Virus record (IMG/VR): IMGVR_UViG_3300021256_000029
Coordinates: 1 to 42,263 of that record
Strand: one strand, 5' to 3'
DNA: 42,263 nucleotides
From: a virus
Shown here: positions 1-42,263 of the stretch, in pieces
Layout: each line of letters begins with the position of its first letter
How positions within the stretch are numbered: the first letter of the stretch is position 1
The notes under the pieces: model-generated
The model's input: the letters and a program-made list of their open reading frames with translations, nothing else
Databases searched by the model: none
What the model was told of the DNA's origin: nothing
Translations under genes and position numbers: made by a program

Positions 1-127
1 ACGCAATTTGGACAACGTGCGGGTATTGTTCAAAATCCGTGTCCCAATTCCACGAACGTTCCGGAATCCCGGTCGTTTCCGTGTCAAAAAATAATACATC
101 GTCAATTGTCATATCGTATCGCAATTT
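1..127. repeat. Exact 127-bp direct repeat of the other contig end (42137..42263); circular-assembly overlap
   Basis: Bases 1-127 are identical to 42137-42263. Both copies carry the 5' end of the DnaQ-like exonuclease gene (minus-strand ATG at 108-110 and 42246-42248). Unique genome length is about 42,136 bp. Confidence 0.95.
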
Positions 128-131
128 AGTG

Positions 132-242
132 TTACTTGGAATCAATGATGGCGCGGGTTCCGTTGGGCCTGTTCCCGTACAACGTACATCCGGAACCGGC
201 AATCGTGAAATCCACGTAATCGTTTTCGTTAATCTTTCGCAT
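132..242 (-). CDS. Hypothetical 36-aa protein (below the ORF-track cutoff)
   Basis: ATG at 240-242, 11 nt after the stop of 254..658. TAA at 132-134, 21 nt before the exonuclease ATG. Translates to MRKINENDYVDFTIAGSGCTLYGNRPNGTRAIIDSK. It fills a gap in a tightly packed operon. Confidence 0.3.
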   Translation of the reverse strand: MRKINENDYVDFTIAGSGCTLYGNRPNGTRAIIDSK

Positions 243-253
243 TTGGTTTTGTG

Positions 254-658
254 TTAAATGGTCCTTGGGTCCTCAATATACACGGAAAGGTTTTCGGCGG
301 CAAACTGTTTCAACCATTCCAAGAAATCGGAAAAGTCGGGTTTGGATATTTGCCGGGCTTCCAACAATCCGCCATAATCGTTATAACACGACCCGCATTG
401 TTGGCGCAACCACAAATCAACCTGTTTTTCGGTTTTGCGTTCGCCGGTTTCCAAAAGGGCCGTTTGGATGGTCGGGACAATGTAATTGAAATAATATGCC
501 AATTGCAATTCACTTGAACCCGGCGCGGCCGCTTCAAAACGGATAACCACGCGTTCGCCTTTGTGTTCCGCGCACCAAGCGTTTACACGGTCCATCGGAA
601 TACGCAACCGGCCATCGGTCCCAATCAATCCGGATTCGCTTATTTTTTGCGTTTTCAT
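254..658 (-). CDS. Hypothetical protein (weak NinB/Orf-like resemblance)
   Basis: 134 aa with an ATG start, 2 nt downstream of the preceding gene's stop. The C-terminal ...FSDFLEWLKQFAAENLSVYIEDP resembles the end of NinB/Orf recombination mediators only at motif level. Confidence 0.5.
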   Translation of the reverse strand: MKTQKISESGLIGTDGRLRIPMDRVNAWCAEHKGERVVIRFEAAAPGSSELQLAYYFNYIVPTIQTALLETGERKTEKQVDLWLRQQCGSCYNDYGGLLEARQISKPDFSDFLEWLKQFAAENLSVYIEDPRTI

Positions 659-660
659 CG

Positions 661-1077
661 TTAATTGGCGTTTGATTTCTTGGGGAACAATTCGGGTTCC
701 AATTCCGGGTATTCTTCAACCACGTATTGGGCCACGGTCAAATTGTACGCCTGTTGGCCGATTTGACGAATGTATTTGCGTTCGGCCGGATTCCGGGTTG
801 AACCACCGGCCACGACCTTTGCATATTCCACGGCCAAATCCTCAACGGACAAATCAACCAATTTGTCAATGACGTGGGCCGGTAATTTGTAACCCTTGGG
901 ACCGCCCAATTTGTGCATCGCTTGGTATGATGCAATGGCCGTTTTCCGGGTTTCCTTTTGTTCGGTCCAATACGCGGCCAAGTTTTCCAAGAATCGCGGC
1001 AACGCCACGACGTCGAAAATGGTTTTACCCTGTAACGCCTTGCAAGAACGAATCTTTTGTAATGTTTCCTTTTTCAT
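661..1077 (-). CDS. Hypothetical protein (138 aa)
   Basis: The track ORF 661..1116 starts at a non-ATG codon. The first ATG (1075-1077, MKKETLQKI...) lies just downstream of a hairpin at 1094-1127. Confidence 0.55.
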   Translation of the reverse strand: MKKETLQKIRSCKALQGKTIFDVVALPRFLENLAAYWTEQKETRKTAIASYQAMHKLGGPKGYKLPAHVIDKLVDLSVEDLAVEYAKVVAGGSTRNPAERKYIRQIGQQAYNLTVAQYVVEEYPELEPELFPKKSNAN

Positions 1078-1187
1078 TGTCTTTTGTATCAATAACCCGG
1101 GATTGTCCCAACCCACAACCCCGGGTTGATGTTGGTATTGTTAGAACCTTATCGAAACGACCGTATCAATATTTATTCGTGTTTATG

Positions 1188-2597
1188 TTAACGTTCCGTG
1201 TATTCTTCAACCAACATTTCGGTTTGGCCGCGTTGGACCTGTTCGATAAATCCTTGGAATCCGTTGCGTTTGGCAATGTCAATGATGGTTTCCAACCTCT
1301 TTGCACCAAGCGATTCGCCACGGGCAATTCGGAACACCTTAACGGTCGGGTTGGATGCGATAACAAGTTTGGCGGCGATTTCCATAATTTGGGAATCGGA
1401 AACTTTTCCCGGGACGAACGGAACGCCATTCAGTTCCAACCCGTCGTCCGTGAACGTCAAACCATCAATGGGTAATTTGGCCGTGGCAATCAGTTCGGCG
1501 CGTTCCTTGGCCAACGCATCAATGCGGGCGTCCATCTGTTCGGCCTTGGCCTTTACGTCGTCAAACTGTTGTTTCTTTTCTTTGTATTGCTCAACCAACG
1601 AATACTTTTTGTTATGGGCTTCCGCATTGGCCAACAGTTCCGGAACGTTGGTTTTTTCCGGGTTGTTCTGTTCATACTTGGCCAACCATTGTTCGGCGTT
1701 CGCCTTGCGGGTTTCCAAATCGGCCTTTTCGGCTTCAATGGCCGCAATATTTTCTTTCAACACGGAATCAATCTTGGTTATCGCGCCCGCCTGTTCGGCC
1801 ACGGCCTGTTCGTATGCGGCTTTCGCGGCCGCAACCTTATCGGCGTAAACCTTGCGGGTTTCGTCCGCCTTGGTCTTTTCCGCTTCAATGCGTCCGGGAA
1901 TGGCCGCAATCTGTTCGGTACGTTGCGCCAACATCGTGCGGACCGTCTTGGCCTTTTCAATCAACTTTGCGTTGGTTGACTGTTGTTCCATCAATCCGGT
2001 AACGTCAATGGGCGTGGCGTATTTCTCAATGTCGCCCGGTTCCATCCGGCCGGTAATTTGTGCAATCAGCGTGTCGAACGTCTTGACGTCACGGTTTACG
2101 CCGGTGCGTTCGGTTTTCAGTCCGGAAACCTCAACGTCAATTGCTTCGATACGTTCACGGACGGCCGGGGCCAACAGGGATTTAACAACGGCAATTTGCT
2201 TGCGGCGGCCATCGGCGGTTTCGGACCAACGGGAAAATTCCACGGCGTCGAAATCTTGGTATCCGAATATGCGTTGCAACATCGAAACGTTGTTGGTCGC
2301 CATACCGGTTGATTTCTGTTTGATGGTCAAAGTTCCACGGGGGTTGTTTTCCGTGAATGACAAAGAAACGTCAAATTCTTCGCCGTCGTCCCCGACAACC
2401 ATTTTGGCAAAGCCCTTGGACGCGCCGTTACGTAACACGTCGTCACGTTCGCCGGTCAATAATGCGCCAATGGCCTTTAACAACGTGGATTTACCCAATT
2501 CGTTGTCGCCCGTAACAAAATAGACATTGCCGGTAAATTCGGCGGAAAACTGTTCGATTACTTGAAAATTCAGTAATTCCAACTTTTTAATGTACAT
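1188..2597 (-). CDS. Rad50/SbcC-like SMC-family ATPase (469 aa)
   Basis: Walker A GDNELGKST at aa 30-38, then about 300 aa of coiled-coil-like KAE-rich sequence. The C-terminus has signature/Walker-B-like VSDSQ...VKVFRIARGESL. The ATG is embedded in the conserved GCGATACGATG motif. Confidence 0.7.
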   Translation of the reverse strand: MYIKKLELLNFQVIEQFSAEFTGNVYFVTGDNELGKSTLLKAIGALLTGERDDVLRNGASKGFAKMVVGDDGEEFDVSLSFTENNPRGTLTIKQKSTGMATNNVSMLQRIFGYQDFDAVEFSRWSETADGRRKQIAVVKSLLAPAVRERIEAIDVEVSGLKTERTGVNRDVKTFDTLIAQITGRMEPGDIEKYATPIDVTGLMEQQSTNAKLIEKAKTVRTMLAQRTEQIAAIPGRIEAEKTKADETRKVYADKVAAAKAAYEQAVAEQAGAITKIDSVLKENIAAIEAEKADLETRKANAEQWLAKYEQNNPEKTNVPELLANAEAHNKKYSLVEQYKEKKQQFDDVKAKAEQMDARIDALAKERAELIATAKLPIDGLTFTDDGLELNGVPFVPGKVSDSQIMEIAAKLVIASNPTVKVFRIARGESLGAKRLETIIDIAKRNGFQGFIEQVQRGQTEMLVEEYTER

Positions 2598-2644
2598 CGT
2601 ATCGCAATTTTTATTGGTCCGGCCGGAACCGGACCCGGGTTTAA

Positions 2645-3097
2645 CTATAACTTAAAATTGGCCATATCAAAGTAACCAACAATGGCCGATTTGCCGCAAT
2701 TCCACGCGTCCAAAATGACGCCATCCACACACGCGGTTTCGTGTCCCGCAACAGTAACAACGAATCGTCCGGCCGGGTGCGTTTCCGCAAATTCCAACAC
2801 GGTCATTCGCTTTTTACCCTTGACCGCCGGGCAATGGGTCCATTTCGCGCCGCCCTCAATCAACCATTTGCGGAATCCGGGGCCATCTTCCGGTAAGGAA
2901 TAATCGGCCCGTGCCTTTGCGGTCAAGAAATCAAACGATTCCAACCACGTACACGAAATTGCGTTGGCCAATGCGCGTACCGTGCAATCGGCAACATCCC
3001 ATTTGAAACCACGTTTTAACGCCCAACGCGGGTTCGGGTTTTCAATCCGGAAATGTGGACCGGATTTGTAACAACGTTCGAATGTTTGTGCATCCAT
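2645..3097 (-). CDS. Hypothetical protein, possible papain-like cysteine peptidase (150 aa)
   Basis: The track ORF 2645..3193 runs through tRNA-Leu. The first ATG clear of the tRNA is 3095-3097 (MDAQTFERCY...). Candidate Cys (VADCTVRALANA) and His (AGHETACVDG) motifs are present. Confidence 0.4.
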   Translation of the reverse strand: MDAQTFERCYKSGPHFRIENPNPRWALKRGFKWDVADCTVRALANAISCTWLESFDFLTAKARADYSLPEDGPGFRKWLIEGGAKWTHCPAVKGKKRMTVLEFAETHPAGRFVVTVAGHETACVDGVILDAWNCGKSAIVGYFDMANFKL

Positions 3098-3139
3098 AAA
3101 ACAATGTGTTAAGTTCCCGGGAAAACGCCCGGTCGTCTG

Positions 3140-3220
3140 TACCCCCGGCCGGAATCGAACCGGCACGCCATACGGCAATTGATTTTGAGCCAATCGCGGC
3201 TACCATTACGCCACGGGGGT
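3140..3220 (-). tRNA. tRNA-Leu: tRNA-Leu, anticodon CAA (reads TTG), type II with long variable arm
   Basis: The minus strand reads ACCCCCG-TG-GCGTAATGGTAGCCGCG-ATTGG-CTCAAAA-TCAAT-TGCCGTATGGCGT-GCCGG-TTCGATT-CCGGC-CGGGGGT-A. It has a 7-bp acceptor stem, a GG D-loop, a TTCGATT T-loop, a 13-nt variable arm and anticodon loop CU-CAA-AA. Confidence 0.85.
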
Positions 3221-3229
3221 ATGTCTTTG

Positions 3230-3300
3230 TTGCGCCGCCCCGATTCGAACGGGGAATACAAGTGCCAAAAACTTGGGTGTTACCATTACACCACGGCGCA
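3230..3300 (-). tRNA. tRNA-Gln: tRNA-Gln, anticodon TTG (reads CAA)
   Basis: The minus strand reads TGCGCCG-TG-GTGT-AATGGTA-ACAC-C-CAAGT-TTTTGGC-ACTTG-TATT-CCCCG-TTCGAAT-CGGGG-CGGCGCA-A (71 nt). The cloverleaf is canonical, with the U1:A72 pair typical of bacterial tRNA-Gln. Confidence 0.85.
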
Positions 3301-3306
3301 ATTCCA

Positions 3307-3586: not shown

Positions 3587-3605
3587 AGAAATACACAAAT
3601 TTTTA

Positions 3606-3806: not shown

Positions 3807-3816
3807 TGTTCTTTGT

Positions 3817-4280: not shown

Positions 4281-4281
4281 A

Positions 4282-4497: not shown

Positions 4498-4507
4498 GGG
4501 TAATTTA

Positions 4508-4792: not shown

Positions 4793-4793
4793 A

Positions 4794-4967
4794 TCATTTC
4801 AAAATTGCGTTCAACTGTTCAATCGTCGTTACCTTTTCCGGCCATTCGTGCCAACCCACAATCAACGTCCCGTCCGGCTTCCATCCAATGCGCGGGTTAC
4901 TGAATCGAACCATTATCCCGGAACGTTCAACCCATCCTTGGGCCAACAGGTATTCACGCGTTATCAT
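4794..4967 (-). CDS. Hypothetical protein (57 aa)
   Basis: The track ORF 4794..5024 has a non-ATG start inside the HNH gene. The ATG at 4965-4967 (MITREYLL...) forms an ATGA overlap with the HNH stop. Confidence 0.5.
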   Translation of the reverse strand: MITREYLLAQGWVERSGIMVRFSNPRIGWKPDGTLIVGWHEWPEKVTTIEQLNAILK

Positions 4968-5443
4968 TCGCCAAGAAAAGTAAAGTGAAAACCTTTGTGT
5001 GCGGGCAATTCGCCACGGCAACATTTGGCAATGTGGGATGTGTCCAAATTCATTTTACGGGCCGCATCGGCGCAAGAATCAAACGTTTTCCCGGTTTCAA
5101 AGCAATATACGGGTTTTCCACGTTTTGCCGAACGTCGTTCAATACAAGAACCAAAATTGATGTTGTATTTTGCCGTACACCATTCCAAATTTTCGGCCCG
5201 GTTGTCCGTCTTGATTTCGTTTTTATGGTTGATTTGTGGCAACCCGTCCGGATTCGGAACAAATGCCAATGCAACCAACCGATGTATTTTGTAACGCTTG
5301 CGTTCAATACAAACTTGGTAATAACCCGTTTTTGTCTTTTCCGGCCTGTAAACACGAAACCCGTGTTTCAAAGTTGCGACACGGCCTTGGTCACTAACTT
5401 GGTAATAACCGGGCAAACCGGGTATTTCTTTCCACGTTTCCAT
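4964..5443 (-). CDS. HNH homing endonuclease (NUMOD4 + HNH + C-terminal HTH), 159 aa
   Basis: METWKEIPGLPGYYQVSDQGRV matches the NUMOD4 pattern. INHKNEIKTDNRAENLEW is an HNH_3 motif. FDSCADAARKMNLDTSHIAKCCRG looks like an IENR1/NUMOD1 HTH. The ATG at 5441-5443 follows the RuvC-like stop by 1 nt. Confidence 0.85.
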   Translation of the reverse strand: METWKEIPGLPGYYQVSDQGRVATLKHGFRVYRPEKTKTGYYQVCIERKRYKIHRLVALAFVPNPDGLPQINHKNEIKTDNRAENLEWCTAKYNINFGSCIERRSAKRGKPVYCFETGKTFDSCADAARKMNLDTSHIAKCCRGELPAHKGFHFTFLGE

Positions 5444-5444
5444 A

Positions 5445-6005
5445 TTAGAACAATTTTGCATATTCCCGGGCGGGCAAATTGCTTTTAACCCAATTGGGTT
5501 CATTGACCAACGCCCAACGTCCAAAGTGCATTATTAAAAGCGCATCAGCGTTCCACAATGTTACCTTAACGCCCGGGTAAAGTTTTGCGGCGTGTTCTTG
5601 GTAACGCTTTTTTCGGTCGGCCTTTTCTTCGTGGACGCCGCGAACGCGCAATTTCAACTTGGTTTGCCAACTTGCGGGATGGACCATTACATACGGAATC
5701 CCGGCGGTTTCGGCCAACGCTTTCAAGTGTTCAAAATTGGCCATCAACTTTTGAATCCTGTACATCTTTCCCATTGCGGCCCGTTCGCCCTGTACCATTA
5801 CGTCGTCCGGGCGGACCGACAATTTTTCCAAAAACACAATGGGTTTGTAATTCTCAACGTAATACGCAAAGAAATCCCGCAATTCGGTAATGTCCTTTGG
5901 CATTTTGGCAACCTTGGGATTTTGGCCGGGAATGAATATGGCAATGCCGCCATTGGCCCCGGGGTCAATCCCTATTACGCAATTTATTTTAATCTTTGCA
6001 TCCAT
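5445..6005 (-). CDS. RuvC-like Holliday junction resolvase (186 aa)
   Basis: Catalytic acidic motifs lie in the RuvC order: IGIDPGANGG, FLEK and NADALLI. Confidence 0.75.
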   Translation of the reverse strand: MDAKIKINCVIGIDPGANGGIAIFIPGQNPKVAKMPKDITELRDFFAYYVENYKPIVFLEKLSVRPDDVMVQGERAAMGKMYRIQKLMANFEHLKALAETAGIPYVMVHPASWQTKLKLRVRGVHEEKADRKKRYQEHAAKLYPGVKVTLWNADALLIMHFGRWALVNEPNWVKSNLPAREYAKLF

Positions 6006-8198: not shown

Positions 8199-8912
8199 TT
8201 ATTTTTCTTTTCCCGGCAATAGTAATGACAAATTTTGTGTTGGCGCAATTGCTTTCCGGATTTCCTCAATACGTGTATCGTTGGCAACCAACGACACAAC
8301 AGGATACCGGGAATTGACGCCGGGTTTGTTACTCTTGGCAAACTGTACGGACAAATCGAACGCCGTTTGGCAAACCGTCCCGCGCATCATTTGGACGCCA
8401 TCGAACGAATTGCGTATATTTTTGATGGACGACGCCGCGCCCTTTGTGGAAAATTGCCATACGCCCACGACGCCACGGACGGCCGGGACAATGAACCGCA
8501 ACGTTAACGCCACGTCCCAATTGTCGGCCCCGCGCTTGGTCGGGTTCCGGGCGGTTATCTGTTCCATAATGTCCGGGTAATTGTCCACGGAATAAGGGGC
8601 GTATTTCTTGCCATCCCATATTTCGAACGTATGTCCGTCGCCACGGGCAACCAACGCCCCGGAATTGTCCCGGTATTCGTAACGTTCGTTGCAAACCTTT
8701 CCCGCATCGTCGGACGGGAATATGATGGTAATGGTTTGGGGCTTTTCGCCCAACGCTTGGGTAAACAATCCGGCGTATTTGCCGGTCGGCCGGAACCAAT
8801 CAATGGATGTTGGTAAACCCCGGTCGTTTTTCATACCGATATGCAACCGGCCAATTTCGGGTAATTCCAAGATTCCCACGCCCTGTTCGGGCCTAATAAT
8901 ACGTCCGCCCAT
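8199..8912 (-). CDS. Hypothetical protein (237 aa); candidate annealing/recombination partner of the adjacent exonuclease
   Basis: ATG 2 nt after the stop of the PD-(D/E)XK exonuclease gene. The functional suggestion rests only on exo-annealase synteny in phage recombination modules. Confidence 0.3.
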   Translation of the reverse strand: MGGRIIRPEQGVGILELPEIGRLHIGMKNDRGLPTSIDWFRPTGKYAGLFTQALGEKPQTITIIFPSDDAGKVCNERYEYRDNSGALVARGDGHTFEIWDGKKYAPYSVDNYPDIMEQITARNPTKRGADNWDVALTLRFIVPAVRGVVGVWQFSTKGAASSIKNIRNSFDGVQMMRGTVCQTAFDLSVQFAKSNKPGVNSRYPVVSLVANDTRIEEIRKAIAPTQNLSLLLPGKEK

Positions 8913-8914
8913 AA

Positions 8915-10180
8915 TTACAATTCCATTTCAGCGTTTAACAAATTGTCCTTTGCGGCCTGTTCCGCAATCTGTTCCGGCGTCGGTCCAACGGGCTTGGCGG
9001 GTTCCGGTTTCTTTTCCCACGGTAATTTTTCGTCATTTTCCGTTTTAACGGGCTTTTCCGGTTCGGACGGGGTATTTACCGGTTCGGTTGCTTTCGTCGC
9101 TTTTACGGCCCTTTTTGTGGCCTTTTTGGCCGGTTCCGCCTGTTGGCCCGGTTCCGGGGCGGCGGCCGCCTGTTTCGGGGCTTCCTTTGTGTCCGCCTTG
9201 GTGCGTATCAGTTCGGCCAACGATAACGTCAACAGGTTGTCCGCAATCTTTCCGTTATCCAAGTCAAGAACGCCACGAACGATTGTCAACGTGTTGTCCC
9301 GCTTTTCATCCTCAATCGCGGCCAATGCTAAAAGATACGGCAATTTCTTTGCGTTGACGGAATCCGTTTGGTCTTTCAAATTGTACGTGGGTTTGGTGCG
9401 CCAATCTTTCGGGGAAAAGTTAAACACGCGTTCAATCGGTTTGTCCTCAAAATTGACATTCCACATTTCCCGGTACAAATGCAACTGTAATTCGTGTTCT
9501 TCAAAAAACCCTTTGCGGCCGCTTTTGAAATCCACAATGGCCGTGAACGTCTTGGCCGTTTTGGGGTCCGTCATTACGCACGGCAAATCCAAACAACCGG
9601 CATACCGGAATTTGGGATGGACCAAACCGATTTCCACGGCCAACGGTTTCACGTTGTAATCCTTGACGAATTGAGCAAATGCCAAAACGTCCTTTCGGAC
9701 CTTAACCAACCATTGGGAAAACAGGGATTCCGGGACGTGTTCGCGTTCCATATACGCAAGCAATACGGACGGGACGTTATCAAAGTCGTAACGGCGGTTG
9801 ATAATCAGTTTTTCAAATTCGCCGTGCATAAACGTTCCGTATGCGGCGGCCAAATCCCGCTTTTCCGTGGAACCCTCTTTTCCATTGGTCAACATCCAAT
9901 CCAATAATGTTGGCGACATTGGCATTACCTGTTTCAAAAGCGTGGTAACGGACGGGTAAAATTCCGGCGTTCCATCGGCTTTGAATCGGTAATAATACCG
10001 GTATCCGTCGGAATTGAGTTGGAACACCCGGTACGGCGGTTCCTTTAACGCATCCGCGTTGAAATAGACGGCGCGGATTTCCTCAACGGTCATTCCCGGG
10101 AACACCTCTTGGGCCTTTTCCTGTTCCGGGGCCATCAATGCGGCCAACGCCGCGTCATTCTGTTTAATTTCTTTTTCCAT
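8915..10180 (-). CDS. PD-(D/E)XK (RecB/Cas4/lambda-Exo-like) exonuclease with low-complexity C-terminal tail (421 aa)
   Basis: Motifs appear in order: GTFMHGEFE, AGCLDL, IVDFKSG (D-x-K) and QLHLY (QxxxY). The last ~90 aa are P/K/A/E-rich. The ATG is embedded in GCGATACGATG. Confidence 0.7.
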   Translation of the reverse strand: MEKEIKQNDAALAALMAPEQEKAQEVFPGMTVEEIRAVYFNADALKEPPYRVFQLNSDGYRYYYRFKADGTPEFYPSVTTLLKQVMPMSPTLLDWMLTNGKEGSTEKRDLAAAYGTFMHGEFEKLIINRRYDFDNVPSVLLAYMEREHVPESLFSQWLVKVRKDVLAFAQFVKDYNVKPLAVEIGLVHPKFRYAGCLDLPCVMTDPKTAKTFTAIVDFKSGRKGFFEEHELQLHLYREMWNVNFEDKPIERVFNFSPKDWRTKPTYNLKDQTDSVNAKKLPYLLALAAIEDEKRDNTLTIVRGVLDLDNGKIADNLLTLSLAELIRTKADTKEAPKQAAAAPEPGQQAEPAKKATKRAVKATKATEPVNTPSEPEKPVKTENDEKLPWEKKPEPAKPVGPTPEQIAEQAAKDNLLNAEMEL

Positions 10181-15686: not shown

Positions 15687-15717
15687 CAAAGATATTAAAT
15701 TTTCGACGTCCGACAAA
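15687..15717 (-). promoter_or_regulatory. Internal promoter inside the lysis cluster
   Basis: On the minus strand, -33 TTTG lies at 15714-15717 (inside the amidase 3' end). After a 19-nt spacer, -7 TATCTTTG lies at 15687-15694. Confidence 0.55.
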
Positions 15718-16189
15718 TTGCAATTGGAAATTCGCTTTTTACGTCAAAACACGGACATTGTTTTATCCATTCGTTCCGGGATATTACGCCGTCCCCGTTT
15801 TTGTCCGGGCTTGCGTCCCGATGGCCGATTACCTCAACAATCGGGTATTCGTCCATCAACTTGTAAACAAGATTGGCCAACGCCAATTTTTGTTCCGGGG
15901 TCCGGGTATCGGCCGGGTTCCCGGACGCATCCAACCCGCCCACGTAACAAATGCCGATGGAATGTTTGTTGTACGCCACGCCGGACAATCCGGCCGTGTT
16001 GCAATGTGCGCCGTCCCTGTTCAACGGGCGGCCCACCTCAACCGCCCCGTCCAAGTCAATGACGTAATTATACCCAATACAGGCAAAGCCGCGTTCTTTG
16101 TGCCATTTATCAATATCGGCGGCCCGGACGTCTTGGCCCGCCCGGGTTGCCGAACAATGAATAACGATTGCATCAATTTTGTTCATCAT
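15695..16189 (-). CDS. N-acetylmuramoyl-L-alanine amidase (Amidase_2/PGRP, T7-lysozyme-like) endolysin
   Basis: IVIHCSAT, GYNYVIDLDG, GAHC...NKHSIGICYVGG and HRD... match the zinc-amidase endolysin pattern. 164 aa. Confidence 0.85.
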   Translation of the reverse strand: MMNKIDAIVIHCSATRAGQDVRAADIDKWHKERGFACIGYNYVIDLDGAVEVGRPLNRDGAHCNTAGLSGVAYNKHSIGICYVGGLDASGNPADTRTPEQKLALANLVYKLMDEYPIVEVIGHRDASPDKNGDGVISRNEWIKQCPCFDVKSEFPIAICRTSKI

Positions 16190-24800: not shown

Positions 24801-25347
24801 CATCGGCATAATTACCCACGTTCAACGTGTGTTTTCCGGTCGCTTCCTGTAACCGCTTCATTTCCTCATAAATGGCGGCGGTTTCCTGTTCCAATGCGCG
24901 GCCCGCTTCCGTCCCGGAACGTTCGGCGGCGGACATTTCGTTAAGACGAATTTTGTTCAACCGGTATTGGGCGGACAATCTGTTATATGAACCCTCAACC
25001 GACGTATTTATTTGGGTAATCAGTTTGTCAATTTGGGCCGATTCCTTTTTGGCGGCGGCGGCTTCCGCAAACGCTTGGGTTGCTTTCCATTGGGCGGTCG
25101 TGACGTCACGATATTCGGTAACCAATTTGTCGGATTGTTCGGTTGCCAATTGGATGGCCTTGCGTTGTTCTTCGCTTGCGCCGGATACGTTTTGCATACC
25201 CTTTGCAATTTCGGCGGCCGCGCCCTGTATTTTTTGTTTTGCCCCGTCGTACTTGGTAATCAATTCGTCCAATTGGTCCATCAAATTGGTTATCGAATCG
25301 TCCGGCGTAATCAAATCGCGGTAATAAATTGGGTTCGGATTGTCCAT
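21859..25347 (-). CDS. Tape measure protein (1162 aa)
   Basis: Very long Q/A/E/L-rich coiled-coil sequence. Internal hydrophobic segments include AANPYVLLAIALITVVGALVAFAAG. It sits in the canonical position after the chaperone-like gene. Confidence 0.85.
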   Translation of the reverse strand: MDNPNPIYYRDLITPDDSITNLMDQLDELITKYDGAKQKIQGAAAEIAKGMQNVSGASEEQRKAIQLATEQSDKLVTEYRDVTTAQWKATQAFAEAAAAKKESAQIDKLITQINTSVEGSYNRLSAQYRLNKIRLNEMSAAERSGTEAGRALEQETAAIYEEMKRLQEATGKHTLNVGNYADAAKGLKMELTSLIQQMALLKTQGETNSEEYQTMAARAAELKDAMADAQTEVKNMSSDTQQLDATMGAASAASGGMSAVTGTMALMGQTSETATDAQKNLGAAVGIVSGLTAVQNALQKESNLMTGIRILQTKAATKAEQLDTAAKAKNTAATAGATVAQRIFNAVAAANPYVLLAIALITVVGALVAFAAGANRAAKEQTKLNKALAAQLDYMEQLAASETRANNERIQTLQNELDVAKARNASISETRALEDEIYNERVKAHDKQMEIYGEQVAGLEANRAKVEQLQKTLLELQQAQAAGKNRLRVDVDLDGKVENTKIDKAIEAVQGQIDNYGRSVQIAVDLQTEGAQISTDRAVQLAQRRKESQDIAKTELDVLRSSQDARIALINDSYKRESAQLRANAQRQIQDIQTRLRTETNLTVKARRALNDQIMAIQEKYNQDLQDLQNAFAARDLAARRETQDVEIALMDDGAEKERTTLRVGYERQIEDLTTAIATQRDLTETEIAEMYNQLVLLGDQYRKELAKLNEQITVDQLNADAARIQLQLDATREGSQEQVDLSIELLKKQRDIELAQNAQLAADVRQNEADINKKWDAIILKQTTELTSKRALMLLDAQQELATSEFALLDANERQKTEFQLRMERERLQKILELDAAAGYKMTETERKTIQNTIAAIEKETKKLPYNNLYELMGIGLDGDQQSALNTAIDSVKESISSIVDSWNAAADAALNAANAQVDAAQKTLDAEIEARNAGYANEVTTAQKELELAKKNQDSAIKEKQKAQKAQLAIDTITQASSLITASANIWSSLSGIPVVGPALATAALVTMWGSFAFAKIKAAQVAGQTEQYGQGTVELLQGGSHASGHDIDLGTKPDGTRRRAEGGEYFAVINKRNSRRYGHLIPDVINAFNDGTFADKYQRANAAMGGYAVGLVGGGNTDVSGLEKDVAAIREQGDRTQYVDGQGNTVIRYKNLTRKIYKN

Positions 25348-29071: not shown

Positions 29072-30187
29072 TTACTGTACGGCTTGGGTATAAACCGGAT
29101 TGGTTTGGCCGTTCACGACCTCAACGGGCGCGGCAAAAGGATTGGCCGTGCCGGGCGTTGCAACCTCAACTTTGATGATGGGATTGGCAACGGTGGTGGG
29201 GTCGGAATTGTACGCAACCAAAAAGGCCACGTCAACGGAAAATCCGAAATACTCTTTGACGTTGCAAACCATATCGGCGGATGCGGCCCCGGCGATTGTG
29301 GATTGGTCGCCAACGGCGGTGTAATAGTGGGAACCCACGGGCAAATCAATGTACGGCAAACGTACAACGTCCCATTCGTGGAAATTGGCGCGGGTGCGGC
29401 TCAACGCTTCGCGGTCAACACGGGTCAACACGCCAACGTTGCCATCGGCAACAATGTAACCGGTTGCGAACACGCCGGAACCGTTCACAATGTTGTTGGT
29501 GTAATGGAACACTTTGTTGTCGTATTCCAAACGCTTGTTGACGTCGTTGTAAATGTCGTGTTCGGCCATCTTGCGTACCAATGAATCGAACCCAGCCCCG
29601 CCGATAACGTGCAACATTTCGGGGTATGCGTTGGCCCTCATCATTGCGTTCATATCGGCCAAAAATTCCATTCGTGCGTTCCACGGGATTTGGACGGAAT
29701 TGGAAACGACGTTGTAATACAACGCATCCTTGAACACTTGGGTTTTGTTCGCTTCCAATGCGGCGATTGCCTGTACATCCATTGCGGTTGCAAGGGCGCG
29801 GCAAACCTTTTCCATCTTGCGGGCAAAGTCGTGTTCGTAGGAAATTTCGTTGTTCCTGTACAATTGGGGAACCATCGTGAACCCAACGGCCAACGTTACC
29901 CAATTGACGGTGTACAACGCGGACGTGTTTTCGTCGTCGGCAATGACGCACGAACGGACGTTGGAAACGGTCACGTCGCCATCGTAATTGATAACGGGGA
30001 TTTGCACGGTGTTGCCGATGGATTCAAAGGCACGGTCGCGCAAGTTGGGGTTGATGATGGAATTGGCGGCGTTGGTTTGCTCAATGAAGAAATCCAATGC
30101 GCCGTATTCCAACGGGCGGGCCATATTACGGTCAAATTCCGGATTTTCGACACGCCAATTTTGCAAACGGGTTGCTACAAGTGACAT
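29072..30187 (-). CDS. Major capsid protein (371 aa)
   Basis: It follows the scaffold-like gene and is followed by a strong terminator. Size and composition fit an HK97-fold capsid protein. The call is by position; no diagnostic motif was seen. Confidence 0.65.
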   Translation of the reverse strand: MSLVATRLQNWRVENPEFDRNMARPLEYGALDFFIEQTNAANSIINPNLRDRAFESIGNTVQIPVINYDGDVTVSNVRSCVIADDENTSALYTVNWVTLAVGFTMVPQLYRNNEISYEHDFARKMEKVCRALATAMDVQAIAALEANKTQVFKDALYYNVVSNSVQIPWNARMEFLADMNAMMRANAYPEMLHVIGGAGFDSLVRKMAEHDIYNDVNKRLEYDNKVFHYTNNIVNGSGVFATGYIVADGNVGVLTRVDREALSRTRANFHEWDVVRLPYIDLPVGSHYYTAVGDQSTIAGAASADMVCNVKEYFGFSVDVAFLVAYNSDPTTVANPIIKVEVATPGTANPFAAPVEVVNGQTNPVYTQAVQ

Positions 30188-31739: not shown

Positions 31740-33482
31740 TTAAACATTGGCCGGTTCGGGTTTCTGTTCATCGGCATATTTCCGAAATTCGGCCGTAATA
31801 ATTTCAATCTTTCGTTTGTACGGTATCGCTTCGCCGAAATCCAAAATGTTGGTGTTTTCACGTTCGAATCGGCGTACAAAATTAGGAAAGTTTAATTTAA
31901 TGCGCAAATCCTGTTCGGAAACCAACTTTTTGTCAAACAGTTCGGAAACCTCTTGGCGGGACAAATGCCGGAATGGTTCAAGTTCCGACAAAACCAACAT
32001 TCGGCGCAATTGCATCGGGTCGTTCCTGTATTCCGTTTCGATGATTTGGCGTTGCATCATATCCAATTCGGATTCGGACGCGCCCGCATCCTTGGCGGCT
32101 TTGTAACGCTTGCGCAATTCATCGGGGGAATACAAGTAAAATTCGGTTCCGTAATTGATGTTTGCGGAAATGAAATAACGACCATAACGCAAATGACAAA
32201 TGGTTGCATCAACCCATTGTTGCGCGGCTTCAAATCCTTTTTTAACACGATTCAAAACCGTGGTTACGCTTTCAAAGTTGGCCATTACCTGTTGTTCGTT
32301 GAACGCATCCCGGTTCGTTACGATTTCATCTTGACCGACAACGGCCGTAATGATTTCTTCGCGCAACCGCTTTTGTTCCCCAACGTTGTAATCCAACGCG
32401 TTGCGGTCAACGGTCAATAGTTGAACCGGGTTCCGCAAATCGGGTTGGTTTTCTTCGGCGTTCGGTACGGGAATTTCAACAAAGGACCCGGCCCCGATAA
32501 TACGTTTGTTGCCACATTTCGGGCAACGCAACAGTAATCCGGCCATATCCAAACGGTAATGTCCTTGTTTATCCCGCAAAAAACCGCCGTCGCAATAATC
32601 GCCGTTTTCGGCGTTGGTAAAATCGCAACTTTGTTCGTAACCGGACAAAATGGGATATGCGCCCATTAAATCCAATTGACGCTTGGAAATGTGGAAAAAT
32701 TCGAACCAATCCAACGATTCAAGAACGGCGGACAACGGGGACGCCTTTACGTCCGGTTCGTCCAACGAAATGGGTTCATTCCAAAAGAACCGCGCCGGGC
32801 AATAACCCAAATCGTGCGGGGCTTCAACCTTTGGCATACCGTCAATTGTTCCGGTGTGCTTTTTGTCGTCCCAAACACGGTATGTTTCATCGTCCAATAC
32901 AACGATTTCGTCACGACGGCGGAAAACAATATATTTCATTTGTCCCGTGGTCGGGTCCGCTTTGTACGTAATTACGTCGTCAATCGGCAACCAATAAAAA
33001 TACGGTTCCGGCAATTCGGTTTTCTGTTCCCGGGGTACGTCAACGATTAGAACGGAATTGATTTCGGATTTGAAAAATTCCCATCCCTTGGTTGACCATA
33101 CGTTGGGTTCATCCAACTTGGTTAATCTGTATTGTTCCCAATCGTCCCGTTGGGCCGTGTTAACGAATTGGTAATTGAACGCGGGGTTGCGCCCGTCGAA
33201 TATGCGGGAAAGTTTGTCAAAGCACACATCCGTTATCTCATTGGTTTTGATGGGATAACGGAATAGTGCTTTGAACAAAACAAATTTGTCGTGCGGCAAG
33301 ATATTTTCGACCATTGCCAAAAATTGGGTCAATGGCAAAGAAATGTACGGTGCATTGAAAGACGTAACGCGTTTGACCGTGTGAAATTTGATGCGCATTT
33401 GATGCAATTTCGCACGGCTCAATGTCGCGGACCTCTTATTTTCCGCAATCTTTTCTTTTATCTTGGCGACGTCGTAACCCAT
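31740..33482 (-). CDS. Portal protein (580 aa)
   Basis: Its size and its position between the terminase and the scaffold/capsid genes support the call. By position only. Confidence 0.6.
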   Translation of the reverse strand: MGYDVAKIKEKIAENKRSATLSRAKLHQMRIKFHTVKRVTSFNAPYISLPLTQFLAMVENILPHDKFVLFKALFRYPIKTNEITDVCFDKLSRIFDGRNPAFNYQFVNTAQRDDWEQYRLTKLDEPNVWSTKGWEFFKSEINSVLIVDVPREQKTELPEPYFYWLPIDDVITYKADPTTGQMKYIVFRRRDEIVVLDDETYRVWDDKKHTGTIDGMPKVEAPHDLGYCPARFFWNEPISLDEPDVKASPLSAVLESLDWFEFFHISKRQLDLMGAYPILSGYEQSCDFTNAENGDYCDGGFLRDKQGHYRLDMAGLLLRCPKCGNKRIIGAGSFVEIPVPNAEENQPDLRNPVQLLTVDRNALDYNVGEQKRLREEIITAVVGQDEIVTNRDAFNEQQVMANFESVTTVLNRVKKGFEAAQQWVDATICHLRYGRYFISANINYGTEFYLYSPDELRKRYKAAKDAGASESELDMMQRQIIETEYRNDPMQLRRMLVLSELEPFRHLSRQEVSELFDKKLVSEQDLRIKLNFPNFVRRFERENTNILDFGEAIPYKRKIEIITAEFRKYADEQKPEPANV

Positions 33483-34446: not shown

Positions 34447-35991
34447 TTAATGGACGCGAACGCCACGGTTGGCCGCGTTGTACGGCCGCGTGTTGCCATC
34501 GGCAATTTCTTTTTCATATATTCCGGTCAATCCGTCCGCGTCGTCGTCGTGTTCGTTGGCGTCAAACCGGCGCATAAATCCCGTTAAATGTTTGTGCATT
34601 TTCGGGTATCGCGTTTCCCATCCGAACGGCATAATGATATGTTGATTGACAAATGGCGCATTAGTAACAATCCGGGATTCCTTGTTGTCGCCTTGGTAAA
34701 ACGGCACGGTCAACGCCCGCACCTTTTTTTTCACGGTCTTTTCGAATTGTGCGCCGCCACTATTCGATTCAATCCACGCTTTTTGTACGTTGTTGGTATT
34801 TATCAGCCGGGGAACGGTCACGGTCGTAATCTCTGTTGATTCGTCCGTATATTCAATATCCGTTATCAGCGCAAACAACAATGGTTCCATCCGGTGTTTC
34901 GCTTCATTCCAAATTTGGTTTTCGGACCGGTATATGTCATAAGACGCCGCAAACAAAAAGTCGTCGCCCTCATCGGCAACGTCAACGTAACATCCGGAAC
35001 GGACGTATTGGCCCCAATCCTGTTTGTCAACCCACGTTTTGAACGGTTGATACAAAAACGCCGTGGCATCCCCGGGATTACCTTGGTACAAACATTGGAA
35101 ACCCAACGGGTCCAATTGCTTTTGTTGCAACAGACGTTCCAACGAATGGCGTTTGGCCCACAATGGTTGCCCGGCTTCGCGTTGGTCAATTTCCGTTGGT
35201 TGTCCTGTTTTGATTGCTTCAAAGTTGACCAATACCCACGCGCCCGACGGGATGTTGTCGAAATCGGACCATTTTTCCGCAAATACGACCTTTTCCGTTT
35301 CAATGATTTTGCCAATAATATCTTCCGGGTGCCAACGGGTAAACACAACCAATTGTTGGGAATCATTGTGCAAACGGGTTTGTGCAACTTTCGTGAACCA
35401 TTCCCACGCGGCCGTCCGGATTATCGGGGAATTTGCTTCGGCGGAATCTTTGTACAAATCATCGTAAATCATTACGTCCACGGTCTTGGACGTCAACGAA
35501 CCGCCACGACCCACGACGCGCAACGAACCGGTATGCCCGACGATTTCGAACACGTCCGAATTTCGCAAGTAATTGTTGGCAACCGTTACCACGTTGGAAC
35601 CGTTCAATTGCGTATCCGGGAAAATGGCCCGGTATTTATCCGAATCAATCAAACGTTGCACATCCCGGTTGAAATCCTTTGCAATCGTGGCCGCATACGA
35701 ACAAATGCAAAATTTCAAGTCCGGGAAATGGCCCAACATATCGGCGGGCAAAAACCGGCTTGAACCTTGGGATTTGCCGTGTTGCGGCGGGGCCTGTATG
35801 ATTAGTTTGCGAATCATACGTTTCACGAACATATCCAACACCCGGTAATATGCAACGTGAAATGGCGTTGGGTCAAAGTTCGGGTCCATATATTCGGCGA
35901 ACCACAACAGGTTGCGCCGTGCGCCCTCTTGTAAAAACAATTCCGGGTGTTCCGATAACGCCCGGGTTATTTGCATTGTATCAACGTCCAT
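34447..35991 (-). CDS. terL: Terminase large subunit (514 aa)
   Basis: The ATG lies at 35989-35991; the track start is TTG. Walker-A-like QAPPQHGKSQ and Walker-B-like VDVMIYDDLYKD are present, with a C-terminal nuclease-sized domain. Confidence 0.8.
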   Translation of the reverse strand: MDVDTMQITRALSEHPELFLQEGARRNLLWFAEYMDPNFDPTPFHVAYYRVLDMFVKRMIRKLIIQAPPQHGKSQGSSRFLPADMLGHFPDLKFCICSYAATIAKDFNRDVQRLIDSDKYRAIFPDTQLNGSNVVTVANNYLRNSDVFEIVGHTGSLRVVGRGGSLTSKTVDVMIYDDLYKDSAEANSPIIRTAAWEWFTKVAQTRLHNDSQQLVVFTRWHPEDIIGKIIETEKVVFAEKWSDFDNIPSGAWVLVNFEAIKTGQPTEIDQREAGQPLWAKRHSLERLLQQKQLDPLGFQCLYQGNPGDATAFLYQPFKTWVDKQDWGQYVRSGCYVDVADEGDDFLFAASYDIYRSENQIWNEAKHRMEPLLFALITDIEYTDESTEITTVTVPRLINTNNVQKAWIESNSGGAQFEKTVKKKVRALTVPFYQGDNKESRIVTNAPFVNQHIIMPFGWETRYPKMHKHLTGFMRRFDANEHDDDADGLTGIYEKEIADGNTRPYNAANRGVRVH

Positions 35992-35993
35992 AA

Positions 35994-36161
35994 TCAACTA
36001 TCAATCCCAATGTTTGAAACGTTCGGCCATCGTGCGTTCATAAATGCCGTTATTGATTCAACAACACGGTTGTATTGTTCATCGGTCAAATGGCCCAAAT
36101 GAATAATAATAACATCTTCGTTCGGGTCTTGCGGACCATCTGTTTTCACAAATCCGGCCAT
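35994..36161 (-). CDS. Hypothetical acidic protein, 55 aa (below track cutoff)
   Basis: Hand translation: MAGFVKTDGPQDPNEDVIIIHLGHLTDEQYNRVVESITAFMNARWPNVSNIGIDS. The ATG follows the upstream TAA by 1 nt, and its TGA lies 2 nt before the terL ATG. Confidence 0.45.
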   Translation of the reverse strand: MAGFVKTDGPQDPNEDVIIIHLGHLTDEQYNRVVESITAFMNARWPNVSNIGIDS

Positions 36162-38940: not shown

Positions 38941-39351
38941 TTATACCGGCATATCGTCGTTGGTGTTATATCCGCCGCCGGGCGTGTAATCCGGGGCCGG
39001 GGCCGGGGCCTGTTCGGGCTTTTTGCCGCCCAACAATTCCATTTCGTCCACAATGATTTCCGTAATGTAACGGGTTTGTCCGGCGTTGTCTTGGTATGAA
39101 CGGGTGCGGACCTTTCCCACAATCAAAAGCGGGGTTCCCTTTTTGACGTACTGTTGGCATACGCCCGCCAATCCGGATTGTTTGACAACGATATTGTGCC
39201 AATCGGTCACATCGGGAATTTCTTTGCCGTCCCGGGTCGTAAACCCGCGTTCGGTCGTTGCCAATGTAAATTGCGCAACCTTTCCGCCATTTTGGAAATC
39301 GGTAATGGTCGGGTCTTGGCCAACGTTACCTTTCAAAAAACACTTGTTCAT
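38941..39351 (-). CDS. ssb: Single-stranded DNA-binding protein (136 aa)
   Basis: OB-fold SSB pattern (NKCFLKGNVGQDP...FTLATTE...TDWHNIVV...YVKKGTPLLIVGKVRTRSY). This is followed by a P/G-rich linker and the acidic tip NDDMPV. Confidence 0.85.
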   Translation of the reverse strand: MNKCFLKGNVGQDPTITDFQNGGKVAQFTLATTERGFTTRDGKEIPDVTDWHNIVVKQSGLAGVCQQYVKKGTPLLIVGKVRTRSYQDNAGQTRYITEIIVDEMELLGGKKPEQAPAPAPDYTPGGGYNTNDDMPV

Positions 39352-39961: not shown

Positions 39962-40139
39962 ACTGAATTGTTATTGTTATTGGTTTCTTTGCTTTCAACG
40001 CAGGTGCAATCAACGGCCAAATCATTTCTTCCAATTCCGCGCCCACGTCGTTTGCATTGCGGCAAATCTTGATTACGCGGCCATTGTCGAACGCAAACGT
40101 TCCATCCGGTTCCGGGTAAATTTCCGCCTTACTTTGCAT
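39948..40139 (-). CDS. Hypothetical protein (63 aa)
   Basis: ATG start with an 11-nt overlap to the upstream gene. Confidence 0.5.
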   Translation of the reverse strand: MQSKAEIYPEPDGTFAFDNGRVIKICRNANDVGAELEEMIWPLIAPALKAKKPITITIQYGTD

Positions 40140-40557
40140 TTTTGTATTCGCGTTTTAACTGTTCGATGGTCAACAGGTTTTGCCGGTATATCCGCATATT
40201 TTCGCGGTCGCCATTTTCCCAACGGTTGTGCATTTCGAAACAAAGGATGTTGACGTTTCGCGGGTCGTGTGCCATTTCCGGGTGTGCCCCGCGTGTCATT
40301 ATGTGCGAAATGTACGTGGCCGAATATTGGCGCAAAGGCCGCATCGTTTCCGAACATATATGCGGGTAATGGTCCCAACAAAACCGGTAAAATCGTTCGT
40401 TTTCGGCCGGGGTATGGCCTGTTCCGAACAATTCCCGTTGTATTGATACCCGCAAATTGATTTCAACCGCAAACCGGCGGTCAATCAACGGTTCGTATCC
40501 ACGTTGGCGGGCGTAATCGTACAATTCCCGGGTATCAATTACAATCGGTTCCATCAT
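40129..40557 (-). CDS. HNH/His-Me-finger-like nuclease (NinG/Rap-like?), 142 aa
   Basis: CSETMRPL...YISHIMTRGAHPEMAHDPRNVNILCFEMHNRWENG resembles a Cys...H...N...C..H finger. TAATG overlap with the upstream gene. Confidence 0.4.
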   Translation of the reverse strand: MMEPIVIDTRELYDYARQRGYEPLIDRRFAVEINLRVSIQRELFGTGHTPAENERFYRFCWDHYPHICSETMRPLRQYSATYISHIMTRGAHPEMAHDPRNVNILCFEMHNRWENGDRENMRIYRQNLLTIEQLKREYKNAK

Positions 40558-41186
40558 TACATTTCGGGCATATCGTCGCCGGTTCCGTCATTGGCGGCCG
40601 TTCCGGATTCCCCGGCCGGGGCCTGTTCGCCGTTGTCGCCGAACAATGATAATTGGGCCTGTTTCCCGTTGAACAAAAATTGGTAAACCTCTGTTTTGAT
40701 TGCTTCCACAATCTTTTCCAATTCTTCTTCAAACCCGAACGAAATTGTGGCCATCTTAATACGCGGGGTATTGATGCACGTTTTTAGGCCGTTGGGGGTT
40801 TCGAACACGGCGGTAATGACAACGCCGGTGTTGTCGTCGGTTCCGGACCAAGACACGCCGCGAACATCAATTTTTGCAATCAGTTCATCGGCAAATGCAC
40901 GGGCCAACATCTTTTTGGATTCGGGCAATTTCATTTCGTCGGAATCCAAGAACGTCAAAAATGACGTAATGTTGAACACGCGGCCCACAATCGGGCGCAA
41001 ATCCTCAAACAGTCCGCGCAAATCCGGGTGGATGTCACGGGAAACGTTTGCGTGGTAATCAGTCACGGACGGTTCGCCGCCCACGGTTTCCGTCACTTGG
41101 TAATCGGCTTGCAACCCGCCGTTGGGGTTCAACTTGACCTTGGAAAGATTGTAATTTTTTTCGGTCGGAATGGTCTTTTGTTCCAT
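40557..41186 (-). CDS. Hypothetical protein with consensus beta-clamp-binding motif QLSLF and SSB-like acidic C-terminus (209 aa)
   Basis: QLSLF lies at aa 178-182 (40641-40655, CAA TTA TCA TTG TTC). The C-terminal tail reads ...GESGTAANDGTGDDMPEM. The ATG is preceded by AATACGATG. Confidence 0.6.
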   Translation of the reverse strand: MEQKTIPTEKNYNLSKVKLNPNGGLQADYQVTETVGGEPSVTDYHANVSRDIHPDLRGLFEDLRPIVGRVFNITSFLTFLDSDEMKLPESKKMLARAFADELIAKIDVRGVSWSGTDDNTGVVITAVFETPNGLKTCINTPRIKMATISFGFEEELEKIVEAIKTEVYQFLFNGKQAQLSLFGDNGEQAPAGESGTAANDGTGDDMPEM

Positions 41187-41191
41187 CGTAT

Positions 41192-41404
41192 TTATTTTTG
41201 TTCGGTTTCCGGTTCCGCCGGAACGGGGTTTAATACGCCAACGGCGATTTCAACCAATTTGTGTAAATCCTCAACAATTGCAAGTTCGGCCGGGTTGGCC
41301 TTGGCCTTGCGTTGATGCGCCAACCAATTCTTGGTGTATTCAAGATAAAAACTTGGCGTGTTGTGGAACGAAATGGTTTGTTCCTGTTTTTGTTCTTTGC
41401 TCAT
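41192..41404 (-). CDS. Hypothetical protein (70 aa)
   Basis: ATG at 41402-41404 (MSKEQKQEQ...), 1 nt after the exonuclease stop. The longer track start is non-ATG. Confidence 0.5.
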   Translation of the reverse strand: MSKEQKQEQTISFHNTPSFYLEYTKNWLAHQRKAKANPAELAIVEDLHKLVEIAVGVLNPVPAEPETEQK

Positions 41405-41405
41405 A

Positions 41406-42248
41406 TTAAAATTCGTTTGCATCCAACAGTTCGGCGGCAAAGCCCGTTATTTTTGCCGAATTTTCGATTTCCGGGGCTTTCGCCGCTTGGACGGGTAATT
41501 TATCATTTTCGGTTTTTGCGTCCAAATTTGAGCCGTTTCCGGGCTTTCCCGGGGATGCGCCAAATTTTTGAGCCGCATCGGCCGCGATTTGGGCGGCGGT
41601 TGTGCTTTCCGGCGCGGGCTTGGCCTGTTCATCCGGGTATTCTTTCACTTTCAGTTCAACCAATCCCAATTCCAAGATAATCGGCAAACACTTGGCAACG
41701 GCCTTTACATCTTCCAACGCATCGTGCGCGGGGAATGTTTCGCCGGGGAAACAACGGGAATACAGTTCGGAAAGATTCGGGAATTTCAACCGGCCGTTGG
41801 CCATCCGGGCGTCAACCCATTTCATCGTCGGGCGCATCGTGTCAATTCGCTTTCCTTTGTACAAAGCGTTTTCCACGTCGTTGGCGTCGTAATATTCCCG
41901 GCCAAGTTCCCGCAAGATATTTGCTTTGATTATGGACGTGTCGAAATGGATGTTGTGGCCGCAAATCAATCCGGCGTCGTGACAATCCTGTATGAACATA
42001 TCCACAACAGACGCGAACGGTTCCCCGTGTTCCAATGCGTATTCCGTGGTTATACCGTGGACGTCAACGGTTTCTTGCGGGATTTCCCACCCATCCGGGC
42101 GGATTATGTGCGTTTCAACCTTGCACCCGTGTAACCACGCAATTTGGACAACGTGCGGGTATTGTTCAAAATCCGTGTCCCAATTCCACGAACGTTCCGG
42201 AATCCCGGTCGTTTCCGTGTCAAAAAATAATACATCGTCAATTGTCAT
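41406..42248 (-). CDS. DnaQ-like DEDDh 3'-5' exonuclease with ~90-aa low-complexity C-terminal extension (280 aa)
   Basis: Exo I FFDTETTG, Exo II GHNIHFD and Exo III HDALEDV. The ATG at 42246-42248 is preceded by GCGATACGAT. Confidence 0.8.
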   Translation of the reverse strand: MTIDDVLFFDTETTGIPERSWNWDTDFEQYPHVVQIAWLHGCKVETHIIRPDGWEIPQETVDVHGITTEYALEHGEPFASVVDMFIQDCHDAGLICGHNIHFDTSIIKANILRELGREYYDANDVENALYKGKRIDTMRPTMKWVDARMANGRLKFPNLSELYSRCFPGETFPAHDALEDVKAVAKCLPIILELGLVELKVKEYPDEQAKPAPESTTAAQIAADAAQKFGASPGKPGNGSNLDAKTENDKLPVQAAKAPEIENSAKITGFAAELLDANEF

Positions 42249-42263
42249 ATCGTATCGCAATTT
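42137..42263. repeat. Second copy of the 127-bp terminal overlap
   Basis: Identical to 1-127. Confidence 0.95.

Follow-up and report, generated by a model that had tools for sequence, protein, structure and literature searches.

Avoidance of restriction sites by phages is already established, genomes free of GATC included. Rusinov et al. 2018 (PMC6286503) found site elimination to be typical of non-temperate double-stranded DNA phages and of the sites of orthodox Type II systems, and to be complete or near-complete for about one tenth of viral genomes. A rumen example is Streptococcus bovis phage F4, for which the title of Styriak, Pristas & Javorsky 2000, as cited in PMC7113391, announces a 'Lack of GATC sites'. 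Among possible sources of such selection, Prevotella intermedia has an active MboI-like GATC system (PMC5608340, where a methyltransferase of rumen P. bryantii that modifies the GATC cytosine is also cited), and the rumen microbiome shares the methylation motifs GATC, TTTAAA and GASTC, as well as GCGC (PMC13519090). Here we describe the IMG/VR record IMGVR_UViG_3300021256_000029 (hereafter the window, meaning the whole stretch of 42,263 nucleotides), the near-complete genome of an uncultured siphovirus from a sheep-rumen metagenome, which contains no GATC at all and whose relatives have lost or kept this and other short words lineage by lineage.

Like the cases of the PMC6286503 survey, the window phage has fully eliminated an orthodox Type II palindrome, and no integrase or repressor was detected in it. 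It differs in that the host systems were known in the survey whereas its own host is a probable one, suggested by context, and also in the unusual breadth of its losses, which take in four 4-mers, 41 of the 64 six-base palindromes and several asymmetric 5- and 6-mers. Phage F4, so far as the cited title goes, resembles it as a rumen phage without GATC, but has a Gram-positive host and is unrelated.

On the evidence of protein similarity and gene order, the window belongs to the B40-8/PDS1 group of Bacteroidota siphoviruses, its portal, terminase, capsid and tape-measure genes being homologous to theirs and arranged alike (PHROG matches and gene maps). A megablast of 25 kb of the window against the phage collection gave a single match, of 91 nt to PDS1 in the tape-measure gene, so that relatives had to be sought by protein. 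With the portal as query, tblastn found 76 phage records, of which 75 spanned 80% or more of its length; portal identity was 66-67% to Parabacteroides phage PDS1, Bacteroides phage BKO1-3 and Alistipes phage AS73P1, 61% to an Elizabethkingia phage and 49% to the B40-8/B124-14 group. PDS1, BKO1-3 and AS73P1 share with the window not only gene order but also the absence of GATC (0 in each, against 76-87 expected) and of CTAG, very low AGCT (0-5 copies), depletion of AG/CT and the loss of 40-47 of the 64 hexamer palindromes. Unlike the window, which keeps both GGCC and CGCG (373 and 184 copies), they lack these two words, and they keep CATG (51-68 copies), of which the window has none; BKO1-3 is also annotated with a methyltransferase and a Lar-like protein. 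B40-8 is likewise a Bacteroidales siphovirus with the same structural module; it avoids GGCC, CGCG and CTAG, sharing only the last of these with the window, but it keeps GATC (126 copies against 146 expected) and has an annotated Dam-family N6-adenine methyltransferase, a case of protection by modification rather than by avoidance. The PDS1 paper mentions neither restriction nor GATC content, and our literature searches found no earlier description of such a purge in Bacteroides or Parabacteroides phages.

A regular-expression count gives 0 GATC in the 42,263 nt, which, GATC being a palindrome, covers both strands, and confirms what an earlier note on this DNA had claimed from reading the letters; nor would the junction of …ATCGCAATTT with ACGCAATTTG… create a GATC, if the genome is circular. 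Base composition alone predicts 162 sites, and the Markov-model count that the earlier note had proposed sets the zero against 105 (first-order) or 97 (second-order). The note's own figure of about 150 therefore fits base composition but is some 1.5 times too high beside the composition-aware value of about 100. We also permuted synonymous codons within each gene, keeping every protein and the codon usage of each of the 64 called genes (94% of the window): 300 such shuffles gave 96.8 ± 7.9 GATC, with a lowest value of 75. GATC is thus under-represented against composition-aware and coding-aware expectations alike, with a Poisson probability of zero sites of about 1e-42. The words around it are common, as the note had also said (GATT 206, GATG 92, GATA 97, CGAT 122 and ATCG 254, to which AATC adds 381), and the one-mismatch neighbours of GATC total 2,071. 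Zero GATC recurs in six independent contigs with portals 98-99% identical to that of the window (L004, L006, L049, L084, L115 and L116, our labels for relatives), which come from other IMG/VR samples and one GenBank metagenome-assembled genome (MAG), so the absence is not an artefact of a single assembly.

When the window was aligned to six GATC-bearing relatives, each comparison gave 40-70 positions at which the relative has GATC and the window a one-base variant (AATC, GGTC, GATT, GAAC and others), and about two thirds of the one-base differences at the relatives' GATC positions are synonymous. The genetic code always allows GATC to be avoided by synonymous codon choice. The avoidance acts at the level of DNA, mainly through changes that spare the protein. 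It is also being maintained: substitutions matched in number and kind but scattered at random make 13-21 GATC at the 3.4-5.0% divergence of the closest relatives, and these have none, so that new sites are being removed now; for GATC-free relatives at 16-21% divergence the same procedure predicts 48-58. Selection against new GATC is therefore ongoing and not a relic.

We then asked how the trait is distributed in the clade, using the portal as the marker for finding and ordering relatives (257 in IMG/VR) and the AAA/SMC-like ATPase as a second marker with which their replication modules were fetched. Around the portal gene we retrieved 80 loci from IMG/VR and 26 from GTDB genome assemblies, and scored the 72 that were at least 9 kb long with a near-full-length portal match, calling a locus purged where GATC lay below 8% of expectation; hosts are known for the cultured phages only, and the comparison of lineages otherwise rests on sequence. 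GATC is purged in 51 of the 72 and not in 21, with at least 10 changes of state by Fitch parsimony on a neighbour-joining tree of portals. Relatives with portals 91-93% identical to the window's have GATC near expectation (L011-L013, with 46/62, 66/90 and 77/81 observed/expected), and lineages with intermediate counts, such as L015 (27/72) and L065 (25/48), have their sites spread evenly. Mosaic recombination as the cause of intermediate counts was ruled out by this even spacing, seen in L015, L045, L046, L065 and L069. The only mosaic-looking case concerns another word: all 8 TCGA of L036 lie in its last ~5 kb (L036:17000-21313), the rest of that relative being TCGA-free, which suggests a module recombined from a lineage that does not avoid TCGA.

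Other words behave in the same way. The purge of CATG affects 38 of the 72 loci, the window among them, and requires 10 or more switches on the tree of portals; the cultured PDS1 clade keeps the word. In the set L001-L003, L112 and L113, GGCC and CGCG are purged in PDS1, BKO1-3, AS73P1 and TCUEAP2 (0-3 copies) and strongly depleted in B40-8 (GGCC 4/53, CGCG 6/67); CTAG is purged or almost so in all five of these named phages. L050 and L059 are purged of CCGG (depleted in L040-L042), and L034, L069 and L108 of TCGA. Loss of GATC thus characterises the clade but is labile, and the loss of different 4-mers lineage by lineage is what a host-specific selective agent predicts and a clade-wide mutational bias does not.

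Within the window GATC is no special case, but one of about 45 purged words. Besides GATC, there are no copies of CATG, AGCT or CTAG; for CATG the expectation is 109 (second-order Markov) or 92 ± 7 (codon shuffles). The 41 absent six-base palindromes form part of a binary pattern, in which a hexamer is either at zero or at expectation: CCGCGG, GGCGCC, GAATTC, CGTACG, CGCGCG, TTTAAA, ATTAAT and GGGCCC have no copies and GCCGGC a single one, while CGGCCG, CAATTG, TTGCAA and CCCGGG reach or exceed expectation. Against the codon shuffles the purge extends (observed/expected) to GASTC 0/24, GCWGC 0/41, CCWGG 0/34, CTNAG 1/21, RGCGCY 0/28, GGYRCC 1/40, GTMKAC 0/17, GGTGA 0/42, GTGAT 0/43, CCTTC 0/69, ACTGG 0/34, GTCTC 0/20 and GAAGAC 0/23, and an unbiased screen against the same shuffles returned 45 non-nested purged words of 4-6 nt, the asymmetric ones including GGTGA, GTGAT, CCTTC, ACTTC, GAAGAC, GTCTC and GCCACC. 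Three of the shared rumen methylation motifs, GATC, TTTAAA and GASTC, are all absent from the window and the fourth, GCGC, is kept (147 against 163). A few words exceed the codon-shuffle expectation (CCGG 525 against 387 ± 10, GGCC 373 against 261, CCCGGG 58 against 32, CGGCCG 64 against 39), an excess that may be a side effect of codon choice avoiding C/T and A/G junctions between codons.

The dinucleotides AG and CT are themselves depleted in the window (observed/expected 0.20 and 0.33). Its coding AG+CT, at 1,375, lies close to the floor set by its proteins, the synonymous range being 553 to 9,671, and the words SSAG/CTSS are nearly gone: the non-palindromic GGAG, GCAG, CCAG and CGAG are down to 3-5 copies each, where 86-160 are expected. 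The earlier note had held avoidance of GATC to be independent of this depletion, and among the relatives the two do vary separately. The AG/CT ratio runs from 0.27 to 1.18 across L004-L135 independently of GATC status; AG/CT is normal in L050, L059 and L066, which lack GATC, and about 0.5 in L011-L013, where GATC is near expectation. A wider and more tentative reading, which we think possible rather than probable, is that the loss of GATC is one manifestation of a purge that acts on many motifs and switches fast within an uncultured clade of rumen phages, that the missing words of each phage would be a fingerprint of the restriction repertoire of its host strains, and that the near-minimal AG/CT, together with the missing SSAG/CTSS, would be the mark of a defence that recognises an unusually short, non-palindromic word. 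To our knowledge such a word matches no known restriction specificity.

Nearly all genes of the window lie on the minus strand. Holliday-junction resolvase and head proteins are also among its PHROG and Pfam matches, and the features on which the argument draws, or which place the phage, are the following.

1188..2597, minus strand: AAA/SMC-like ATPase of the replication-recombination module (Pfam AAA_15, AAA_23, AAA_29)
4964..5524, minus strand: HNH/NUMOD4 homing-type endonuclease (PHROG 59, E = 3e-46; PADLOC homing endonuclease, E = 2e-22)
8199-8912, minus strand: Gp3-like protein of the replication-recombination module (Pfam PF18897/PF12705 reported for 8199..10180)
8915-10180, minus strand: PD-(D/E)XK exonuclease of the replication-recombination module (Pfam PF18897/PF12705 reported for 8199..10180)
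15695..16189, minus strand: N-acetylmuramoyl-L-alanine amidase, the endolysin (PHROG 822, E = 1e-56; Pfam Amidase_2)
21859..25347, minus strand: tail tape-measure protein (PHROG 20660, E = 9e-179)
29072..30187, minus strand: virion structural protein, counterpart of the PDS1 gene annotated as major capsid protein (PHROG 7231, E = 7e-123)
31740..33482, minus strand: portal protein (PHROG 7376, E = 3e-194)
34447..35997, minus strand: terminase large subunit (PHROG 38, E = 1e-73)
38941..39351, minus strand: single-strand DNA-binding protein (PHROG 44, E = 3e-36; Pfam SSB)
40129..40557, minus strand: second HNH endonuclease (PHROG 144, E = 2e-9)
41406..42260, minus strand: RNase_T-type 3'-5' exonuclease (Pfam RNase_T)

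The terminase large subunit marks the window as a tailed phage, and as PHROG and Pfam matches include no integrase or repressor family in the window, the phage is probably virulent. The two terminase genes, small and large, flank an open reading frame (ORF) for a GNAT-family acetyltransferase (36287-36625, minus strand, 112 aa, Pfam Acetyltransf_1 E = 3e-8). Two long ORFs overlap on opposite strands, at 14573-15520 (plus) and 14665-15336 (minus), and a family match was found for the minus one only (DUF6549, E = 1e-34); the plus-strand one, 315 aa long, is probably spurious, because depletion of TAG/CTA makes stop codons rare on that strand. The exact portal protein of the window is present on the 42,346-nt ENA scaffold SHIW14-1_SAMN02144230 and on GenBank AUXO01, both of which we take to be the sheep-rumen metagenomes of Shi et al. 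2014. Positions 42254-42263 (…CGCAATTT) repeat positions 1-10 (ACGCAATTTG…), and the window is 83 nt shorter than the ENA scaffold, which suggests a circular assembly or a trimmed terminal repeat.

Among the 19 Pfam families matched by 55 non-structural ORFs of the window there is no DNA methyltransferase or base-modifying family, PHROGs scans of the window likewise gave no DNA methyltransferase or modification family, and tblastn with the BKO1-3 and B40-8 methyltransferases found no match in it. In BKO1-3 the annotated methyltransferase gp4 lies near gp2, the counterpart of the window's RNase_T exonuclease, with one small gene between, and by tblastn the window has no homologue of gp4. To judge from these searches, the window phage would not appear to protect its DNA by self-methylation or hypermodification. 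The closest full-length relative, L116 (a 44,003-nt contig with a portal 99% identical), has two ORFs without counterpart in the window, L116:330-884 and L116:6696-7427, the latter 54% identical to B40-8 gp19. Although gp19 is annotated as a DNA methyltransferase, neither it nor this homologue has a Pfam methyltransferase domain, and they were not counted.

Modification genes do occur in relatives that keep GATC. Besides B40-8, L119 (GATC 104 against 77 expected) has a Type II N6/N4 methyltransferase, and its sister L120 (98 against 66) a Mom-family protein and a PAPS-reductase/DndC-like protein. These different modification genes stand at similar positions of the replication module (L119:3557-4705; L120:2305-3126 and 4910-5584), and CCGG is depleted in both phages. 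The specificity of the L119 enzyme could not be called from solved structures, as the beta-class N6/N4 matches, which differ widely in specificity (CcrM, M.MboIIA, M.PvuII and DpnA), extend over conserved motifs only. A rule that GATC is kept where a methyltransferase is present turned out to be only partly true, as there are GATC-free relatives with methyltransferases and some GATC-keepers with none in the available stretch.

The host is probably a member of the rumen Bacteroidales, given the rumen origin of the scaffold and its relatives among Bacteroidales phages, and possibly one of the Prevotellaceae. We attempted to read the host from the 26 GTDB portal loci, but the MAGs that contain them carry inconsistent labels (Enterousia, Acutalibacteraceae, Alphaproteobacteria, Elusimicrobiaceae, Prevotella and others). 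These loci (L084-L109) are phage-length contigs of the clade, 42-48 kb, in variously labelled MAGs, Propionibacterium included, and their placement is almost certainly binning contamination by free phage contigs, not host evidence.

We consider it likely that the window phage, which encodes no DNA methyltransferase, passively evades GATC-cutting Type II restriction of the MboI/DpnII/Sau3AI kind, its hosts probably being Bacteroidales. We infer from the pattern that selection is exerted by a restriction endonuclease, and of which class; the selection of restriction type that the earlier note had proposed gains support from the codon-aware deficit, the synonymous changes, their ongoing maintenance, the switching between lineages and the lack of a detected methyltransferase in the window. 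Host strains would carry GATC-cutting Type II endonucleases, and unmethylated phage DNA with a GATC would be cut on entry into such a strain and leave no progeny. Site-free genomes would then win, their sites lost mostly by synonymous single-base changes and afterwards kept out. The same process would have removed CATG and some 40 other short words; the loss of so many fits a phage population that meets many restriction systems across its host strains. The published record agrees with this reading through the frequent elimination of orthodox Type II sites in non-temperate phages, the MboI-like system of P. intermedia and the title on phage F4, and for a host endonuclease the Prevotella systems and the GATC methylation in the rumen give indirect support.

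Several points weigh against this evasion of Type II restriction. The cognate GATC enzyme and the host that would carry it are both postulated. The GATC-free relatives L127 and L130 carry ParB-methyltransferase fusions and another N6/N4 methyltransferase, which may or may not act on GATC, and the GATC-keeping L124, L125, L132 and L133 show no recognisable methyltransferase in the portion available, although these last may simply infect hosts without a GATC system. Finally, the simulation of substitutions ignores constraints of codon position, though its margin is large.

A methylation-dependent endonuclease, either DpnI-like Type IIM or Type IV, could impose the same avoidance if GATC were methylated by a Dam-like orphan methyltransferase in one host and the resulting G6mATC were cut in the next. 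In its favour, Prevotella is known to have orphan GATC methyltransferases and GATC methylated at adenine (PMC5608340), GATC is among the methylation motifs shared in the rumen (PMC13519090), and GATC fell short of expectation in 46 of 46 phages of the PMC6286503 survey with hosts that encode the corresponding GATC (Type IIM) endonucleases; the shuffles, the synonymous changes, the divergence test and the tree fit this mechanism as well as they fit classical restriction. Yet we regard it as rather unlikely. GATC-keepers tend to carry adenine-modifying genes (the Dam-like enzyme of B40-8, the N6/N4 methyltransferase of L119, the Mom protein of L120), which would do harm if cleavage were methyl-directed but would protect against classical restriction. 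Some 40 classical Type II targets are also missing from the window (GAATTC, TTTAAA, CCGCGG and others), for which a single common mechanism is simpler, and the survey itself (PMC6286503) puts the weak signal for Type IIM down chiefly to orthodox systems that overlap with it.

The phage might instead encode its own GATC-specific nuclease, an HNH protein for instance, that degrades host DNA, and have lost the site for self-protection. There are indeed two HNH endonucleases in the window, but the one at 4964-5524 matches NUMOD4/HNH_3 homing-endonuclease families, the one at 40129-40557 matches HNH-endonuclease PHROGs only, and neither resembles a Type II restriction enzyme. Such a nuclease could not account for the joint loss of about 45 unrelated words or for the switching between lineages, and we think it very unlikely.

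It is more improbable still that composition, codon usage, amino-acid content or mutational bias removed the site as a side effect, with no selection on the word. GA is somewhat under-represented in the window (observed/expected 0.62), and its dinucleotide and codon usage are very unusual; but models that keep trinucleotides, or the exact proteins and their codon usage, still expect about 97 GATC, and one-mismatch neighbours abound. Close relatives of similar composition have GATC at expectation (L011-L013, L022 and L030), relatives with normal AG/CT are nevertheless GATC-free (L050 and L066), and the absence of new sites at 3.4-5.0% divergence also contradicts such a by-product. An artefact of assembly, library or design hardly deserves credence, since zero GATC recurs in independent assemblies from other samples and pipelines, as well as in three cultured, separately sequenced phages.

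A GATC-free phage would in itself be textbook restriction avoidance, and the worth of the finding lies in the clade, with the breadth of the purge and its rapid, lineage-specific switching adding to the interest. This clade comprises hundreds of closely related rumen and gut phages, in which GATC, CATG, GGCC, CGCG, CCGG and TCGA each flip between absent and normal within 80-99% protein identity, and some lineages use methyltransferases or Mom in place of avoidance. Because the trait is common to the cultured PDS1, BKO1-3 and AS73P1, direct tests are possible. The clade is a natural experiment, which could be used to gauge the speed at which restriction targets are lost and regained, could let phage sequence by itself reveal which restriction systems uncultured hosts possess, and could guide the choice or design of strategies for cloning and transformation in rumen Bacteroidales.

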